A stretch of DNA of 64,000 nt from Escherichia coli (lineage in GTDB: Bacteria; Pseudomonadota; Gammaproteobacteria; Enterobacterales; Enterobacteriaceae). Below the pieces are notes generated by a model. It was not told the origin of the DNA. It saw nothing but the letters and a program-made list of their open reading frames with translations, and made no database searches. This document shows positions 2,973 to 46,484 of this stretch, one piece after another (position 1 is the stretch's first letter; each line of letters starts with the position of its first letter). Where the stretch lies: NCBI RefSeq assembly GCF_003334315.1, contig NZ_QOWR01000012.1, one strand, 5' to 3'. Made by a program: the position numbers and the translations under genes.

Positions 2973-3010
2973 CAGGATAGCGAAGAAGACTGATGACAAA
3001 CGGAAAACAG

Positions 3011-3108
3011 CCTGATGCGCTACGCTTATCAGGCCTACATTTTCTCCGCAATATATTGAATTTGCGCGGTTTGTAGGCCGGATAAGGCGTTCACGCCGCA
3101 TCCGGCAT
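3011..3108. repeat. REP/BIME cluster downstream of uvrB
   Basis: gcctgatgcgctacgcttatcaggcctac ... gtaggccggataaggcgttcacgccgcatccggca; canonical REP palindromes in inverted orientation. Confidence 0.85.
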
Positions 3109-3163
3109 AAACAACGCGCACTTTGTCTTCAATAGGAAGCCGGAATTTTCCTTCGGATTTCCG

Positions 3164-8059: not shown

Positions 8060-8216
8060 TTACTAAAAACGACACTTAACAAGTACCAGGTATAAAATAC
8101 GCCTTATGGCGAGCGGAAGCGTTTTCCGTATCCATAAATACAAAAGTATTTTGTATGCGTGGTTTTAAATTTATTGATGGTGAATATTAATATTTTTTCT
8201 AAGGACAACTAAAAGA

Positions 8217-19660: not shown

Positions 19661-19715
19661 TCTTTTATGCCGGGCTATGCCCGGCATCAGGCTGATGAAC
19701 AAACGCAAAACTGTC

Positions 19716-19815
<100 letters not shown>

Positions 19816-19891
19816 ACAACAAGCACTTGTCAGCAATTTGAGAACACGGGAAAAAATTTATCTGTTTTACCGCCCATAAGCCACCGAGACG

Positions 19892-20374
19892 TTACTTCTC
19901 TATAGCCAATTGTTCGCGCAACTCCATTAAAAGGTAGCCCAGTCGATTCTTGCCCTTACCATTACCACCGTCTCCCCAGTAAGCATCGTTTTCCGTATGC
20001 TCAACCAGTTTTGCGGGCGCGGTTGCCTGCAAGAGCGCACGCAGTTCTGCATGCTGTTCGAATTTAGCGCGAAGTGCTTTTCGCATCACCTGTTCTTTGA
20101 CCGACTCCCAGTTTTTACGCAGAGGCTTAGAACGATCGCGCCCCATGCGTGCGGCGACCATAGGGGAAGAAACCCGACGGATCTCTTCGCGGTATTTTTC
20201 ATCAAGGAATTTTTGTGCCTGAAAATAGTGTTCTGAGGTGGGCCAGGTTTTCCCGTCAACCTTGATGGGCCAGGCGGCAAAGTTAGAAAAATCACCGTAG
20301 TCATCGCTGGTGCTGTAGAAATTTATGATGGTGTCTTGCATGACGTGTTGGATCCTTTGTGCTCGAACGGGCAT
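19892..20374 (-). CDS. ybiA: NADAR/DUF1768-family N-glycosidase YbiA
   Basis: 160-aa ORF, sequence recognised. Confidence 0.88.
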   Translation of the reverse strand: MPVRAQRIQHVMQDTIINFYSTSDDYGDFSNFAAWPIKVDGKTWPTSEHYFQAQKFLDEKYREEIRRVSSPMVAARMGRDRSKPLRKNWESVKEQVMRKALRAKFEQHAELRALLQATAPAKLVEHTENDAYWGDGGNGKGKNRLGYLLMELREQLAIEK

Positions 20375-24964: not shown

Positions 24965-25085
24965 GGACGTAGCGTAAACGCCTGATCCGTCCAACGGTTC
25001 GGATTTTGTAGGCCTGATAAGACGCGGTAGCGTCGCATCAGGCATCTGTTGCCGGATGCGGCGTAAACGCCTTATCCGTCCTACG
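24965..25085. repeat. REP/BIME cluster downstream of hcxB
   Basis: Multiple REP units (gcctgataagacgcggtagcgtcgcatcaggc, gccggatgcggcgtaaacgccttatccg). Confidence 0.85.
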
Positions 25086-25087
25086 AA

Positions 25088-25348
25088 TTACTTATAAATT
25101 ACCGCAGTACCGCTTAATTTATTGTTGTTGGTGGCGGAAGTGATGCTGTATCCACTGGCACCGGCTGCCGCGGCTTTCTCAGCCAGTTTCGCTTCCAGGG
25201 CATCGAGGGTGGATGCGCCATCGGCAGAAACCACGCCGATTTTATTCATGTTCTGTGCCTGGGATGCCGTTACCGGTTCCGCCGCGAACACGCCAAATGA
25301 CAGAGTTGAAAGAGCCATAGCAGCAACAACAGTATTGATAGTTTTCAT
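25088..25348 (-). CDS. ybiJ: DUF1471 (YhcN/BhsA family) secreted protein YbiJ
   Basis: 86 aa with signal peptide; paralogous to McbA. Confidence 0.88.
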   Translation of the reverse strand: MKTINTVVAAMALSTLSFGVFAAEPVTASQAQNMNKIGVVSADGASTLDALEAKLAEKAAAAGASGYSITSATNNNKLSGTAVIYK

Positions 25349-25612
25349 AATTAATCTCTCGCAGGTGATTTTTGTATAAGTGACGTTGTTTCGTCGATGT
25401 GATGAGTATCACGTTTTTTTACGAGAGATAAAATCGAAGAGAATTGACCGCCTTGTTCAAATAAATTGATTGATATCTAACCTACTGATAAACCATTTAT
25501 TTGTTGTACTTATGAACTTGTTTTATACCGCGTGGCAGTCACAGCAGCGTTAAAGGCACGGAATGACACGCAAAATACAAATTATACTCGCTATGCATCT
25601 CGCCAGTTGTAG

Positions 25613-25879
25613 TTAACGTAACTGGCTGTCTTTCGAACCTCTGCGATTATATCCTGTATAAGCTGGTTTTTGTAAATCTTTCTCCTGCTGACAATGAATA
25701 CATAAGCGCACGCCAGGAATGGCTTCCCGACGGGCCTGCGGGATGGGGGCACCGCACTCTTCACATTCATCCAAGCTTTCGCCGCGCGGAATTTCACCCC
25801 GAGCGCGGGCAATCGCATCTTCAATTGTACTGTTGATCTGTTCGTTGACGGCGTCATCGTTAGCCCAACCGGATGCCAT
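25613..25879 (-). CDS. ybiI: DksA/TraR-family C4 zinc-finger protein YbiI
   Basis: 88 aa; CxxC...CxxC motif (CEECG...CIHCQ). Confidence 0.88.
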   Translation of the reverse strand: MASGWANDDAVNEQINSTIEDAIARARGEIPRGESLDECEECGAPIPQARREAIPGVRLCIHCQQEKDLQKPAYTGYNRRGSKDSQLR

Positions 25880-25952
25880 ATCGACCTCCCCATATCAATA
25901 CTTGTACAGTTAAGTGTAGCTAATCCAGGGACGAACTCGGGCAGTTCAAGCA

Positions 25953-26630
25953 TCAGATCTCCGACCATTCCCGCAGCAGATTATGATAAAGATTAAGCAG
26001 CGACAGGATCTCTTCACTTTCGCCGTAGCGGCTTTTCAGCGACTGAATATTGTTGTCCAGTTCAAACAGCATGGCGCGCTTTTTATCATCGCGGATCATC
26101 GACTGGATCCACATAAATGATGCCACTCGTACGCCGCGGGTTACGGGTGTCACGCAATGCAGGCTGCTGGAGGGATACAACACGAGATCGCCTGCCGGGA
26201 GTTTTACCCGATGTTGTCCGAAGGTGTCATTAACGACCAGTTCGCCGCCGTCGTAGCTTTGTGGATCGCTTAAAAACAGCGTGGCAGAAAGGTCAGTACG
26301 CATCCAGCCGTTTTGTGGATGGCTGCGTACTGCGCCATCCACATGGAAACCATAGGTTTCATTGTTCTGATAGCGATTAAACAGCGGCGTGGAAAGGGTA
26401 CGCGGCAAGGCCGCGGCAAAGAATAAAGCATGTTGGTTAACCGCGTTCAGCACCTCATTTTGCAGGGCGGCGTATAACGTGCTGCGGGTGTCGACCTGTT
26501 GATTGTTCTTAACTTGCGCACCTTGTGCGCCGGTGGTGACGCGTCCATCCACCCATTCGGCTTGTTCCAGTTGTTCGCGAAAACGAGCGACGTCCTGTGG
26601 CGATAACACGCCGGGAATGTGGTACATCAT
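25953..26630 (-). CDS. ybiX: PKHD-type Fe(II)/2-oxoglutarate hydroxylase YbiX
   Basis: ORF 25953-26666; likely start [10 protein letters not shown] (225 aa). Confidence 0.85.
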
Positions 26631-26671
26631 ACAATTTCTCCAAAAAGTGGGGCCTGCGCCCCACATCTGAA

Positions 26672-28954
26672 TCAGAAATGCATATTGGCTGTGAGCAAGA
26701 AGGTTCTTGGCTCGCCCGGGTGATAACGGTAGCCGCTCTTGTTGATTGAGGCGACGTAATCGGTATCAAACAGGTTGTAAACGTTTAGCTGGAAGTCGAG
26801 ATTGCGATTAACTCGATACCCCAGTTTGGCATCGGCGACCCAGTAACCTTCGGTAAACGCTGGCGTTCCCACCGCGCCGTCTGAACCTTTATGCATACTG
26901 CCGATATAGCGTGCGCCCGCGCCAACAGAGATATCGTCGGTTGCCTGATATTGGCTCCATAAGGTGAAGGCGTGCTCCGGGGTATACGGCAGCGATGAGG
27001 AACCATCCTGGGCAACATCTTTGCCGTTTTTGATGGTTGCTTTTTGCTGGGTATAGCCGCCAATCACCTGCCACGCGGGAGTGATATTCCCGGCCACGGA
27101 TATCTCATAGCCTTCGACGCGTTTCTTACCGTATTGCGAGTAAGTTCCGTCATCATTTTGCTCAACTTCATTTTCGATATCAGTGCGGAACAGCGCGGCG
27201 GTGAGCAACAGACGTTTATCCAGAACCTGCCATTTGGTGCCAATCTCGCTGGTGTTGGCTTTTTGCGGTTTAAAATCGGTGCGGTTGGCACTGTTACCGC
27301 TGCCAGACTGCGCAAGGGCGAAGTTGTTGCCGCCCGGAGGCTGCTGGGAAACGGCATAGTTAATATAGACATTGCCGTTTTCCGTCAGGTGATACAGCGC
27401 CCCGGCTTTCCAGTTCATCAGATTGCCCGACTTGGCGGTGTCGACGGTGGTGACCGGAGAACCTTTTGCCACACCAGTTGGGCAGGTGATGGCACCGCGT
27501 CCGCTGCCGCCGCAGGCGGTGGCACTGTCATATTCAGTATGATAATTATCCAGACGGATCCCGCCGTTCAGCTCAAAATCACGGGTGATTTGCAGCGTAT
27601 CAAAGGCGTAAATTGCGAAGGTATCCGTCTGACCATTGGCGTTTGCGCCGTTGCGCGTCAGGCCGCCGGGATGAATGCTGCTGTCAGGATGATAAATATT
27701 TACCGCGGGTAACGTCACCGGATTAACGCCGTAGTTAGTCTGCGTTTCACGGGTAAATTCCACGCCGGTACTGACATCATGACCGATAGAACCGGTATAG
27801 AACGTCGAGGTCAGGTTGGTCTGGTTGGTGAGAATTTTATTACTCACATCTTTGGTATTCGCCGTGCGTGACCAGGTCCAGCTATTCACATCGCTGGTGG
27901 GCTGAGTAATATTCGACGCCCCGCCCATAATCGCCGTCATCAGGTAATCCTGCTTTACGCGCGACCAACGGGTAGTATTGCGAATGGTGGTGTTATCGTT
28001 GATGTCGTGCTCAAAACGCATGGTGGCGGTGTCGGTGGTCGAATCGTCGTAATCGGAATCCGTGCCGTAAAAGTTATGAGTATCAACTTTTCCGGAATGA
28101 TTCAGGGCCGCCGTTCCCGCAGATGGGGCAGAATAGCCCGGCAAACCGATGGTCGGAATGCCGCCGTCTGGCGTGTTGTGCTGGGTGACATGCAGATAAT
28201 TAAGATACAAACGATTCGCTGTACCAAGGCCAAAAGCGACAGAAGGGGCGACGCCGTAACGCTCATTTTTGACTTTGTCGCGTCAGGCATCGTGCGTTTT
28301 TTCGCCCATTACATTCAGGCGCACCGCGGTGGTATCACCAATGACCTGATTGACGTCCAGCGTGCCGCGGCGGAACCAGGCGCTGCCAATACTGGCGGAG
28401 GCGTCAATGCCGGAATCATTGCGCGGCTGCTTGCTGATCATATTGATCGAGCCTGTCGGTGCGCTGCGCCCGTAGTCGGTGCCGGACGGCCCTTTAATCA
28501 CTTCGACCTGCTCGGTATTGAAGGTGTCGCGCGAGACGCTGCCGATATCGCGAATGCCATCAATATAAATACTGTTAGAGGTATCGGCACCACGCATATA
28601 AATGGCGTCGCCAGTGGTGGAGTTACCGTTCTCACCCGCAAAAAACGCACCCACGCCGGGGACGTTTTTGAGCGCGTCGGTAAGGTTGGTTGCGCCCTGA
28701 TCTTTAATCACTTGTTCAGAAATTACCGTCATCGTGCGGGTAGTATCCGCTACCGGACGCGAGAATTTCGGATCGGCAGATTGTTGTGGCGCATAAAGCG
28801 AAGGCGTTGATGCTTCGACAACCAGCGTGTCATCCGCGTTAGTTTGCTCTTCGGCGGCGAGTGCCTGAGCCACAGGCGTGATGCCAATACAAAGACCGGC
28901 AAAGAACGTGAGCGAATGAAATTGTCTGGCAGGGAAATTGCGATTGTTTTCCAT
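26672..28954 (-). pseudogene. fiu: TonB-dependent catecholate siderophore receptor Fiu, interrupted by an in-frame TGA at 28283-28285
   Basis: Two same-frame ORFs (28283-28954 and 26672-28210) separated only by a TGA codon; the total span equals one 760-codon reading frame; signal peptide and plug domain lie in the upstream piece, the beta-barrel in the downstream piece. Confidence 0.85.
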
Positions 28955-29057
28955 TTTGCAGGTGACTTTTTCTTATATGTTGAAATTTTCACTGCCACGA
29001 GAAAGCCTCTCTGCGGATGCGATGCCACTGTTAATCCCGTGATAGTGCTCGTGAAAG

Positions 29058-29082
29058 TGATAATAATTTTGATAAGCATTAT
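29058..29082. promoter_or_regulatory. Fur box in the fiu promoter
   Basis: gataataattttgataagcattatc, close match to the GATAATGATAATCATTATC iron box. Confidence 0.8.
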
Positions 29083-29218
29083 CACTTGGAGCGATTTTCT
29101 ATCACCCATTGCGCGAAAAAGAAATACATTTATTTACATTGAGTTCATATTTGATGTTTTTTGATTACAAAACAGACGAAAACTGCATCCAGAGGCGAAT
29201 GCAGTTACGTTGGTGGGG

Positions 29219-29479
29219 TTATTTGTAGATGGTTGCAGTACCGAACATCTGGTCATTTCCGCCTGCGGAATTAATGACATAACCTTTCGCGCCTTGTTCG
29301 CGCGCTTTTTCTGCCAGTTTATCCTCCAGATCGCTTAGGTTTGATGCGCCAGTTGCCGAAACGGTACCGGCGGGCCGTAGCTGACCGCTGTCCAGGTTAC
29401 TCATCGGTTGCGCGGCATAAGCCGTGAGAGAGATTCCGCTCAGGACGGTGGCAATCAGTAGTGTGAGGCACTTTTTCAT
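29219..29479 (-). CDS. mcbA: DUF1471 periplasmic protein McbA (YbiM)
   Basis: Start MKKCLTLLIATVLSG (86 aa); signal peptide. Confidence 0.85.
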   Translation of the reverse strand: MKKCLTLLIATVLSGISLTAYAAQPMSNLDSGQLRPAGTVSATGASNLSDLEDKLAEKAREQGAKGYVINSAGGNDQMFGTATIYK

Positions 29480-29751
29480 AATGACATCCTCATAAATACA
29501 ACGGGTAGTGCCTGATAAGTGTAGGTCGCCTGCGCGATGCAAATGACGCAAAAAATTGACAGAGATGTGCTTATTTTTTGAACGATATATTTTTACAAAA
29601 TAAGACAAATCAATGACATGCATAATGCTGATTTTTATGATGAATTGCCATAAACCATAGCCATGTTAAGGTTTTGGGGAATGATAAACGCAGCCAGATA
29701 TTTACCCTGTCGCGTTATGCGGGTATCTTACGCCGCTGCTTAAAGGAGAAT

Positions 29752-30681
29752 GCTATGTCCGCCCAGAAACCGGGGTTGCATCCGCGCAACCGTCATCACA
29801 GCCGCTACGATCTCGCCACGCTTTGTCAGGTCAATCCTGAACTCAGGCAATTCCTCACGCTTACACCCGCCGGGGAGCAAAGCGTAGACTTTGCCAATCC
29901 GCTGGCGGTGAAGGCGCTCAATAAGGCGTTGCTGGCCCATTTTTACGCCGTAGCGAACTGGGATATCCCCGACGGTTTTCTCTGCCCACCAGTACCGGGC
30001 CGGGCGGATTATATTCATCACCTTGCCGATTTACTGGCAGAAGCAAGCGGAACAATTCCAGCGAATGCCAGCATTCTGGATATCGGCGTTGGTGCGAACT
30101 GTATTTATCCGCTGATTGGCGTACATGAATATGGCTGGCGTTTTACCGGTAGTGAAACCAGCAGCCAGGCGTTAAGCAGTGCGCAGGCGATTATCAGTTC
30201 TAATCCGGGGCTTAACCGCGCCATTCGTCTGCGTCGGCAAAAAGAGAGTGGGGCGATTTTTAACGGCATCATCCATAAAAACGAGCAATACGACGCGACC
30301 TTGTGTAACCCGCCATTCCACGATTCCGCCGCTGCGGCACGGGCAGGTAGTGAGCGTAAACGCCGTAACCTGGGGCTGAACAAAGACGATGCACTGAACT
30401 TTGGCGGCCAGCAACAGGAGTTGTGGTGTGAAGGCGGTGAAGTCACCTTTATCAAAAAGATGATTGAAGAGAGCAAAGGCTTCGCGAAGCAGGTGATGTG
30501 GTTTACATCACTGGTATCTCGTGGTGAAAACTTACCGCCGTTGTATCGTGCCCTGACGGACGTGGGCGCGGTGAAGGTGGTTAAAAAAGAGATGGCCCAG
30601 GGGCAAAAGCAGAGTCGCTTTATTGCCTGGACCTTTATGAACGACGAGCAGCGCCGCCGTTTTGTCAATCGCCAGCGTTAA
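29752..30681 (+). CDS. rlmF: 23S rRNA m6A1618 methyltransferase RlmF (YbiN)
   Basis: Start [15 protein letters not shown] (308 aa); SAM-MTase motifs; NPPF motif (CNPPFH). Confidence 0.9.
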
Positions 30682-32903
30682 AGCGTTGGTTCCCCCGGCG
30701 GTAACGGTTCAGCCGGGGTCGCGCCCGGAGCAGGCAGCACCTGATAAGTCTGCACTGGCGCGCGAACGCCCGCCAGGTCGAAATGTTTTTTCACCTGGCT
30801 GTCGAGGGCAAAGCGTACCGTCCACTGTTTGAGTGGCAGCGTGGTGAACGAAACACGCAGTGTAAACGCGGTATTGCTTAAGCCGACAATCCCGGCAAAA
30901 TTCGGTTCACCAATAATCAGCCCGCGAATTTCTTCGTTTTCCATTAATTCCGCTACCGCATCTTTCAGTGCCTGATTGGCTTTATCAGCATCTTCATGGC
31001 GATCAACATCATAATTTGCCACCACCGAACCAATGCCGCGGACAAAGTTAGCAAAGGTGGTTATCGAAGACCACGGAATGATGTGATACGCCCCGGTATC
31101 CTGTCGTACGCCCACGGAGCGAATCGACATCCGTTCCACTGTGCCGGTCAACGGCCCGATAGTCACCAAATCTCCAGTGTTCATGCCGTTTTCAAACTGA
31201 ATAAATACCCCGGTGATAATATCTTTCACCAGCGTTTGCGAACCAAACGAGATAGCCAGACCTAATGCCCCGGCACCTGCCAGCAATGGCGCGATATTGA
31301 CGCCGATTTCCGACAACACAATCATGATGGTGATGGTACTGATAATCACCGCCAGCGCGTTACGAAACAGCGTAAGCAGGGTACGCGTGCGGGCGCTGGG
31401 TAGCGGGCGGCCATGAATATCCGAAGCCAGCCGGTTTTCGATCAAACTGGCGAGCACCGTCCAGCCAACCGCCGAGAAGAAAAGAATGAGTGCGATACGG
31501 ATCAGGATATCTACGGTTTTCTGCCCCGCGCCGTTTTGCAGCCAGTTCCAGAAATCGAACAATCCCCATGCGCTCAACAGCAACATTACCGCCACGCAGA
31601 CTGTCAGAATACGCGCCGTTTTCAGCGCCGCCGACAGCCAGCCATTCAACCGTTTTTGCAGCTCCGGATAGTTACGCTGAGTATGTGGCGAGAGAGTGAT
31701 GGTTTTCGCCAGCCAGCGGGAAAACATACCGGAAACAAACGCTGCGATACCAATAATCGCCAGGCTGCGCACCGTTGCACCCATCATAAATTTCAGGCTG
31801 TTGCCCGGATCGAACAACGAAAAGAAAAACAGCACGATAAAATAGGCGCTTGCCAGCCAGTGCCACACCAGCGCAAAGGCGCGGATAAACAGGCTGAAAA
31901 AGGCCAGCGAATGCTCCGCGAAGTTGAGCAAATGCTGGGTAATCTCTTTTTTATTACGAAAGATCAGGTACAACGCCCAGACGGTCATGCACAGCATAAT
32001 GATGACGTTCGCCAGCGCACCTATCTGTACATTCACCTGATTAGAGATAATCGGCACGGCCACAATCAGGCCATAACCTATCAAACTGCTTAACCAGCTC
32101 AGGCGACGACTCCAGTAACGGGCGCTCTCGTCCTGAATCGTGAACGGGCGCAGCTCCGCCACGTTTGGGCAAAAAATCAGGCGTAGTACGGCTTTGAAAA
32201 ATTCAATGAGGGCAAAGGCGTTGAGAAACAAACTTTGTTGGAAAGCGATGGTGCGACTGCCTGCATTCAGGTTGTCGCTTAATACCTGGCCGACAAATAA
32301 TGTCAGGGCCAGTAACAGCAGGTCGATAATAAACGCCCCGATAATCATCGCCGGAAGCTGCAACCAGTTGCTGCGCTCACGATTTTTTTGCCGCGCCCAC
32401 TGACCCATTTTGCGATACAGCGGCAGTGCGCACAGGCGAATCAGCCAGTAAAAACCAAACACTAATACCGCTAACATTGAAAAATGGGTCAGCGCATTGC
32501 TGAAGGTTTGTGGATTAAACGGCTTATGCGGGGAGCCGGTGATATTGCGATAAAGTTGCCCGAAGCGGGCGGAAAGGGCTTCACCATAATGGCGGCTGAC
32601 TTCGGTGACCTTTTGCAGCACGGTTTGCTCTTCGACCAGCGTCGGCGGCACTATTTTTGGTACCGGTTCAGCAGGGGGCGTAGCGGCAACGGTGCGCAAC
32701 TGGTCGATCAACTCTTTACGCGAGGTGTCATTATCCAGCACATCCGCCAGTGCGCCATAGGCCGCTTTTTTTTGTTCGATATCCGGTTCCGGGGCCGGTT
32801 CAGTCGTTGAGTCCGTTGTCGTTGTGGTTGTAACGCCGGGTATGGATACCGCGTGGGCAGGTGCGCCCAGCAGGCAGAAGAGGATGAACAGGATCCACCG
32901 CAT
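30678..32903 (-). CDS. ybiO: MscS-family mechanosensitive channel YbiO
   Basis: Start [18 protein letters not shown] (741 aa); signal peptide, multi-TM region, MscS C-terminal domain. Confidence 0.9.
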
Positions 32904-33053
32904 GACTCCTCCAGTGAGAAAATAGAGCAAAAAGATAAGTATAGATGCTGGAGGAGGGGCGATTTTAAATGAGAGGAATCTGGTGTGCCTCCCTTTCGGG
33001 TGAAAGGGAGGAAGGGATATTAAGCAGGTTGCTGACAACGTGCGGGCTTTTTT

Positions 33054-33153
33054 GCCGGATGCGGCGTGAACGCCTTATCCGTCCTACAAGTTCATGCAAT
33101 TTTAATAAGTTGCCAGATATCCTGTAGGCCTGATAAGCGTAGCGCATCAGGCA
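33054..33153. repeat. REP/BIME cluster between ybiO and glnQ
   Basis: gccggatgcggcgtgaacgccttatccg ... gtaggcctgataagcgtagcgcatcaggc. Confidence 0.85.
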
Positions 33154-45218: not shown

Positions 45219-46484
45219 TCAAACATCCATGCCCAACGCTCGCTTACCGTGAATGTTGAGGTCGGCAAGCGTAAAGCGTCCTTCCCAGTTTGTTTCATAG
45301 TCCTCGCGCGGGAAGTCGCCCGGCGATGCGCCTTTTTCCAGTGCGGCCTTCACCTTGTGCGCGTAGGCAAGATTTTTCTCGCACATCGGTGCCGCAGGAA
45401 TGTACATCACGTTGCCCCAACCTTGTTGATTTTCAACGGGGGCAACGGAATGGATGACGTCGCAGTGCCACCAGACGGAGTCTCCGGCTTCGAGTTTTGG
45501 AATGCTGGTTAACGCCTCAATCAACAGTGGATGCCATTGCTCTGATACCGGCAATACTCTTCCGGGCGCTACGCCGCACAGTTCATCCTCCGGCACATCA
45601 TCAAGCAGCGGACGTAACAGTACGTACGCCATAGCTTCAGGAATGGGCACGACGTGCAGCAGCCCCTGACAAGGCAGCATATCAGAGAGCGCTGTCCAGC
45701 CCTGGAATGTCCGAAACACGGAACATTTGGTGGTGTTGTCCACCGTGTACTCTTCAACTTCCGTACGATGTGCCGCATGCCAGGGATCATATTGCGCCAG
45801 ATTGCCATTAAAGACGTTGACGAAAACGCGCTGATACGCTGGAAGCAGCCAGCGTTCCAGTGCCCCGGAGTCGGTATGCGCTCCAAGACCTTTGGAGGTC
45901 GTTCCGGGCGGACGGCGGCGGATACGGTCAGGGTAGATGACGCTCACATCCGGGTTAAACCATTGCTTTCCATCACTTTCAAATGTCCACAGACGATTGA
46001 GAAACGACTGCGCATTCGCCATTTCTTCACTCTGGCGGGCCTGCATTTGCGCCTGCGACCAGTAGATGGGGTAAATCTCGGGACGTGAAGCGCTGAGCGT
46101 CCCGAAGAAATTATCGCCGGGGCCTTTGTAGACCTCGTCAAAGCGGTTGCGGTCCAGATAGTCCAGCATCGACTGATCCCAGCCTAGCGCTTGTTCGCGG
46201 GGGAAATGGCCTTTTATCACCGCACAACCGCGACGTTTAATCTGTTCGCGCTGCTCTGCAGTAACATGACCTGCTTTGATATCGGCATAAGACAGCACCG
46301 GCCAGACGGCATCGCCCTGTGCTTTGAGTGCGTTGATTTCAGCCACTCGCGTGGCAATGTCATCGCTTAGCTGATTAAAGATCTGCTGGACGTCGCCAAG
46401 CTGCGCCCGCAGCGCGTGCTTCATCTGACGGATAGCTGCTTTGTGATCGGCAGGCAATGTGTCGCTGGTAAAAGTAGAAGCCAT
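45219..46484 (-). CDS. ybiU: DUF1479 family protein YbiU
   Basis: Start MASTFTSDTLPADHK (421 aa). Confidence 0.88.
   Translation of the reverse strand: MASTFTSDTLPADHKAAIRQMKHALRAQLGDVQQIFNQLSDDIATRVAEINALKAQGDAVWPVLSYADIKAGHVTAEQREQIKRRGCAVIKGHFPREQALGWDQSMLDYLDRNRFDEVYKGPGDNFFGTLSASRPEIYPIYWSQAQMQARQSEEMANAQSFLNRLWTFESDGKQWFNPDVSVIYPDRIRRRPPGTTSKGLGAHTDSGALERWLLPAYQRVFVNVFNGNLAQYDPWHAAHRTEVEEYTVDNTTKCSVFRTFQGWTALSDMLPCQGLLHVVPIPEAMAYVLLRPLLDDVPEDELCGVAPGRVLPVSEQWHPLLIEALTSIPKLEAGDSVWWHCDVIHSVAPVENQQGWGNVMYIPAAPMCEKNLAYAHKVKAALEKGASPGDFPREDYETNWEGRFTLADLNIHGKRALGMDV

Follow-up and report, generated by a model that had tools for sequence, protein, structure and literature searches.

A nonsense allele of the catecholate siderophore receptor gene fiu (G224*) in a small clonal lineage of Escherichia coli

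Fiu of Escherichia coli K-12 (b0805; PDB IDs: 6BPM, 6BPN and 6BPO) is a TonB-dependent iron-catecholate transporter, and in transporters of this kind the plug must be enclosed by a barrel of 22 strands (PMC6926462). In catecholate iron uptake, Fiu is partly redundant with CirA and FepA, a growth defect being seen only after several of the receptors have been removed (PMC6926462). Microcin E492 (PMC6926462 reference 51) and cefiderocol (PMC5740388) are both documented to enter through Fiu. In BW25113, deletion of fiu alone shifts the cefiderocol MIC from 0.063 to 0.125 μg/ml, deletion of cirA alone does not change it, and the fiu cirA double deletion brings a 16-fold rise (PMC5740388); a later study gives cefiderocol MIC effects of 3-fold for fiu and 8-fold for cirA (bioRxiv 10.1101/2025.11.06.687119).

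Disrupted alleles of the gene occur in several lineages. At least 19 complete genomes from hosts of various kinds (including VR50 and UMNF18) have IS4 near codon 102 of fiu, where PGAP annotates a pseudogene, and an IS1 element interrupts the gene in one more complete genome, LR-17-1. Other deposited genomes carry an additional A at fiu position 653, within an A6 run, an additional C at position 707, within a C4 run, or other indels; some of these records come from long-read assemblies with more indels nearby and may be errors. The same +A at position 653, equivalent to position 28296 of the window (the whole 64-kb stretch of DNA analyzed here), is present in several genomes, among them three large NCTC-type contigs, and might reflect a hotspot of slippage or else a homopolymer error that recurs in long-read data. 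Premature stops in a catecholate TonB-dependent receptor used by catechol-cephalosporins are likewise represented by the cirA and fiu truncations of cefiderocol-non-susceptible Enterobacterales, in which most lesions of clinical importance affect cirA.

The window extends from bioD-uvrB to dgcI and contains the same gene as K-12, of the same length and at the same locus: the order mcbA-fiu-ybiX-ybiI (mcbA upstream; ybiX and ybiI downstream) is shared with K-12 and four other genomes. It differs from the K-12 gene in codon 224, which is TGA instead of GGA, and in residue 36 (E36 instead of G36), and a transporter made as one polypeptide would be impossible. As in the IS4, IS1 and homopolymer-frameshift alleles, the plug-bearing N-terminal part is cut from the barrel, and all of the compared lesions fall within the first third of the gene; unlike them, the lesion is a point nonsense substitution at a unique position, in a different lineage, and is present in draft assemblies only. 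The likeness to the cefiderocol-linked truncations extends to the type of lesion and of receptor, whereas nothing ties the TGA lineage to exposure to the drug. The low number of run SRR1122540, in which the allele is also present, presumably places that run at about 2014, before cefiderocol was in use. Very probably, the locus represents a genuine and recent loss-of-function allele of fiu (G224*, GGA to TGA) that has been fixed in a small clonal, phylogroup-A-like lineage distinct from K-12.

The fiu reading frame and the mutated codon

On the minus strand of the window, the fiu frame (28954..26672) comprises 760 codons followed by the natural TGA stop. Plus-strand translation of the same interval is full of stops and meaningless, and this reading of the coordinates was dropped. 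Minus-strand translation contains exactly one internal in-frame stop, at codon 224, where the peptide runs ...NVMGEKTHDA*RDKVKNERYGVAPS...; positions 28283-28285 read TCA on the plus strand and thus TGA on the minus strand. A mechanical list of open reading frames shows the gene as two pieces broken at codon 224, 28283..28954 (223 aa, starting with ATG) and 26672..28210 (512 aa, starting with TTG). Of the 57 complete genes of the window that were checked, 56 are free of internal stops and fiu alone has one. The features of the frame are as follows.

26672..28954, minus strand: fiu reading frame, now a pseudogene broken at codon 224 (translation, NF007349, PDB 6bpm, RefSeq comparison)
28283..28285, minus strand: premature TGA at codon 224, with the mutated base at 28285 and C as the next base, giving the signal UGA-C (base-by-base comparison)
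28848, minus strand: G36E (GGG to GAG), a natural polymorphism beneath the stop, common to the intact allele WP_061350528.1

An earlier note on this DNA had reported an in-frame TGA in fiu within a frame of 761 codons at 26672-28954, together with the surrounding peptide. The observation is confirmed: coordinates, codon count and peptide are all correct, and only the strand, which the note had left unstated, has to be supplied as minus.

When glycine is restored at codon 224, the protein scores 1507 bits against the NCBIfam equivalog NF007349 ('catecholate siderophore receptor Fiu') over positions 1-760 of 760 (cut-off 686), and this end-to-end match indicates that the gene derives from fiu. 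The restored protein also matches Fiu in PDB 6bpm over residues 34-760. As the 6BPM chain begins at residue 34, the mature protein would start there, and G224 would correspond to mature residue 191.

The fiu gene of the window was compared by megablast with 5,426 complete E. coli genomes, in 5,422 of which fiu was detected. The six best matches were displayed as '100.0%', and in their records fiu is annotated as intact (WP_061350528.1) and not flagged as a pseudogene. A base-by-base check found GGA in all six, which rejects them as carriers of the stop and identifies the percentage as a rounding effect. The fiu genes of Res13-Lact-EB12-05 and MS15047 are one base apart from that of the window: a G to T change at gene position 670 (C to A on the plus strand, at window position 28285) turns GGA (Gly224) into TGA. 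No indels separate the window gene from its closest intact alleles. Codon 224 is GGA in every relative that was fetched and read there, K-12 included, and a mutant 69-mer centered on the site had no exact match among the 5,170 complete E. coli genomes that it matched. This one-base difference from intact alleles bears out the earlier view of a single-base nonsense change rather than a frameshift or a deletion; the wild-type codon, looked up in the reference and in relatives, is GGA (Gly), and the reference K-12 fiu is free of this stop.

The lesion is one G:C to T:A transversion on the E36 background allele, whose intact protein is widespread (273 blocks of the collection). A sense codon thus stands at this position in intact orthologs and the remaining frame is conserved, as is the case for a pseudogene arisen by nonsense mutation. 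Since fiu shows no other changes, the pseudogene is young, with no time for further decay.

Authenticity of the stop codon and the lineage that carries it

The absence of the mutant base from all 5,170 complete genomes could be taken to mean that the TGA is a sequencing or assembly error and that the true genome has GGA, the more so as several other 'split fiu' records are homopolymer indels (+A in A6, +C in C4) that may be long-read errors. The change in the window is, however, a substitution outside any homopolymer, and the comparison of the window with a close relative is free of indels over 49 kb. Besides, the TGA was checked base by base in three other sequences. The Logan contig SRR1122540_230 (8,020 nt, 4 samples), which was built from raw reads and is 100% identical to window positions 25059-33078, TGA included, has a gene call for precisely the 223-aa N-terminal product. 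The two NCBI assemblies GCA_003334315.1 (QOWR01000012.1) and GCA_012531215.1 (DABAWT010000004.1) match window positions 9892-30374 with 100% identity, the TGA of codon 224 included, and their NCBI annotations lack a fiu product, as expected of a pseudogene. Recurrence of the TGA in two assemblies by separate submitters and in a Logan contig re-assembled independently, with complete identity over 8-20 kb, makes an error extremely improbable, and for practical purposes it is excluded.

The two assemblies are connected by a rare lineage marker, Q116 of YbiA (window position 20028), where the closest complete genome and K-12 have Leu. Its carriers are 19 contigs, all from draft E. coli assemblies. 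A further 16 contigs have the same gene neighborhood. The 24 longest contigs with intact E36 Fiu were searched for an intact immediate ancestor combining E36 and G224 in Fiu with Q116 in YbiA, and none was present. The TGA allele belongs to a small clone that is missing from the complete-genome collection. L116Q in YbiA (codon 116) is non-synonymous relative to the closest complete genome, as are G272C and A222V in YbiU (window positions 45671/45820), and the YbiU variant is commoner (154 contigs).

The earlier note had also held that the stop marks the source as something other than K-12, or else as a sequencing error. The first half of this statement stands and the second falls, since the same base recurs in independent assemblies. 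An origin from K-12 is rejected by the 116 mismatches between the window and MG1655 over 45 kb; the mismatches number 13 against the dog isolate Z1323PEC0011 and 14 against the human isolate HS30-1. Judging from the nearest neighbors (e.g., VR50 and UMNF18), the source is probably a wild, non-K-12, phylogroup-A-like E. coli.

Mobile and repeated elements are also seen in this comparison. The diguanylate cyclase gene dgcI (yliF) is disrupted as well: an IS1 element interrupts it near codon 312 of 442, and the initial 204 nt of that element close the window (63797-64000). In HS30-1, dgcI is intact at the IS1 site; a shared insertion at the window end was considered and rejected as a joining artifact with another IS1 copy. 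Z1323PEC0011 has IS1A between ybhL and ybhM, flanked by a 9-bp target duplication of window positions 8095-8103, and the site is empty in the window. Two intergenic stretches of about 140-155 nt (2990-3127 and 19690-19845) match each other's HS30-1 counterpart at about 85% identity and are probably REP/BIME-type repeats.

Products of the interrupted gene

The stop divides the protein between its two domains: Pfam places Plug at residues 68-168 and TonB_dep_Rec_b-barrel at 257-728, with codon 224 in between. The parts of the gene on either side are as follows.

28286..28954, minus strand: translatable N-terminal product of 223 aa (ORF list, Pfam, NF007349, Logan gene call)
28856-28954, minus strand: signal peptide, approximately codons 1-33 (PDB mature chain starts at residue 34)
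28451-28753, minus strand: Plug domain, codons 68-168 (Pfam)
26672..28282, minus strand: untranslated remainder, codons 225-760 plus the stop, essentially the whole beta-barrel (translation, Pfam, NF007349)

The N-terminal fragment alone scores 411.9 bits against NF007349, which is under the cut-off of 686; in addition to the signal peptide and the plug, it includes the TonB-box region and approximately 55 residues of the first barrel strands. As the earlier note had proposed, the N-terminal piece retains the signal peptide and the plug, and nearly all of the barrel profile (257-728) follows the stop. The 512-aa C-terminal fragment maps to NF007349 positions 249-760; it was considered as a marker of the allele and rejected, as it is called after any upstream lesion. 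Signal peptide, plug and the complete 22-strand barrel are therefore not encoded in one uninterrupted frame, the TGA at codon 224 falling between them. Because the barrel is needed around the plug and the stop precedes most of the barrel, a Fiu transporter in the outer membrane probably cannot form.

Two readings would nevertheless preserve an active receptor. In the first, UGA is recoded, as selenocysteine or by programmed or suppressor readthrough, and functional full-length Fiu is made. Among stop codons UGA is the leakiest; Trp-tRNA competes with RF2 for it and decodes it at a low level (PMC10570021). The ancestral codon is, however, the Gly codon GGA in the relatives read and in K-12, and UGA at this position is unconserved (0 of 5,170 complete genomes). 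A conserved UGA and a SECIS-like stem-loop directly downstream, as a selenoprotein or another recoded gene would have, are both absent: a 65-nt stretch that surrounds the UGA and continues downstream has a fold no better than those of shuffled sequences (z = -0.38), and an Rfam scan of the locus gives no family at E<=1. The window contains no tRNA genes, and readthrough would put Trp in place of Gly. The context UGA-C does favor leakage, as UGA followed by C is said, from the work of Poole, Brown and Tate in 1995, to be the weakest termination signal in E. coli; readthrough normally stays at around a percent or below. Traces of full-length G224W Fiu may thus arise by readthrough, and nothing suggests a programmed event; functional recoding appears highly improbable.

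In the second reading, plug and barrel are made separately and reassemble into an active transporter, as in a split gene. The precedent is FhuA, whose separately expressed cork and barrel reportedly reconstitute in vivo if each has a signal sequence (Braun et al. in 2003). In fiu, the only in-frame ORF 3' of the stop begins with TTG at 28210 (codon 249), extends for 512 aa and has no signal peptide; residues 224-248 are absent from both pieces, and no gene-like start context was identified. Given the TTG start at codon 249 and the missing signal peptide, a working split gene is not credible, and we regard this reading as vanishingly improbable.

Simple loss of function is preferred over both. 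The features of the regions flanking the gene are as follows.

29058..29105, minus strand: fiu upstream control region, in which a promoter-like site (match at 29105..29078) overlaps Fur-box-like GATAAT repeats (sequence)
26647..26664, minus strand: terminator-like hairpin, rich in G+C and with TTTTT behind it, in the interval from the fiu stop to the start of ybiX (consensus match only)
25953..26630, minus strand: ybiX, intact, 41 nt downstream of fiu (ORF; annotation in related genomes)

Fur regulates fiu. Positions 28955-29218 show no differences from Res13-Lact-EB12-05, whose fiu is intact, and transcription should therefore be unaffected. On the downstream side, the hairpin (GTGGGGC-GCAG-GCCCCAC, then TTTTT) lies within the 41-nt fiu-ybiX gap, and its presence makes it a question how far ybiX is co-transcribed with fiu; expression of ybiX could be lowered by polarity of the premature stop.

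The following course of events is proposed for the mutant. Under iron limitation, the unchanged fiu promoter would still be transcribed. Translation would stop at codon 224 and release a precursor of 223 aa, from which cleavage of the signal peptide would leave about 190 aa consisting of the TonB box, the plug and the first barrel strands. The 1.6 kb 3' of the stop would stay untranslated, the 22-strand barrel would not be formed, and no Fiu would be present in the outer membrane, as judged from the architecture of the protein. The cell would be down one of its three partly redundant catecholate receptors (FepA, CirA and Fiu), for which the published knockouts predict a small fall in the uptake of monomeric catecholates and a 2-3 fold rise in catechol-cephalosporin MIC, which would become large only in combination with cirA loss.

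Recurrent fiu lesions, possible selection and expected phenotype

The closest sisters of the window lineage are GCA_004172725.1 and GCA_004172665.1, which come from one project, share Q116 of YbiA and have GGA at codon 224 and G36. Both carry a +C frameshift in the C4 run at fiu codon 236 (equivalent to window position 28244). GCA_004172665.1 and the window are separated by four called differences in 20.5 kb, three of them in fiu (G36E, G224* and +C at codon 236). Under a uniform expectation the binomial probability of this clustering is P = 0.005, and it becomes approximately 0.03 when conditioned on the TGA that drew attention to the gene.

Such clustering raises the question of whether loss of fiu is adaptive, i.e., selected by catecholate microcins (E492, M, H47), by catechol-beta-lactams or by the saving of cost, rather than a product of neutral decay. 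The disruptions by IS4, IS1 and frameshifts in other lineages point in the same direction, as does the role of Fiu in the entry of microcin E492 and cefiderocol. The test is, however, post hoc and rests on four sites, and the +C lesion is located within a homopolymer, in assemblies containing N bases. Loss of fiu alone protects only 2-3 fold, and redundancy of the receptors also predicts relaxed selection and recurrent loss without any benefit; moreover, no mention of G224* was found in the published literature. The clustering in the sister lineage therefore represents a post hoc hint of selection on fiu that is equally compatible with relaxed constraint, and adaptive loss seems doubtful. A narrower version is distinctly unlikely: that fiu is a recurrent target of selected loss within a narrow phylogroup-A clade, with independent lesions in two near-identical sister lineages in addition to G36E. 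If it were true, it would imply pressure from microcins or antibiotics that depend on catecholate receptors, or from another agent, and possibly a trickle of Fiu from the leaky UGA-C.

The earlier note had expected the lesion to affect antibiotic susceptibility. Its direction agrees with the published deletions; the expected size is small, as the effect of fiu alone is modest (2-3 fold; PMC5740388; bioRxiv 10.1101/2025.11.06.687119). The consequence of the TGA allele alone is probably modest as well. The genes cirA and fepA lie outside the 64-kb window.

In kind, the event is an ordinary and already understood one, the recent inactivation of a well-known gene. For the biology of the organism, the G224* allele is an ordinary case of a redundant outer-membrane receptor that decays or is lost, and no new question arises from it. 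Its practical relevance derives from the position of the gene: Fiu and CirA are the two main entry routes for catechol-cephalosporins such as cefiderocol, and Fiu is also a catecholate microcin receptor. A lineage devoid of Fiu would be one cirA mutation away from the 16-fold MIC rise of the double knockouts, and for this reason the allele may serve as a useful marker for surveillance and for the interpretation of MIC values in this clone.
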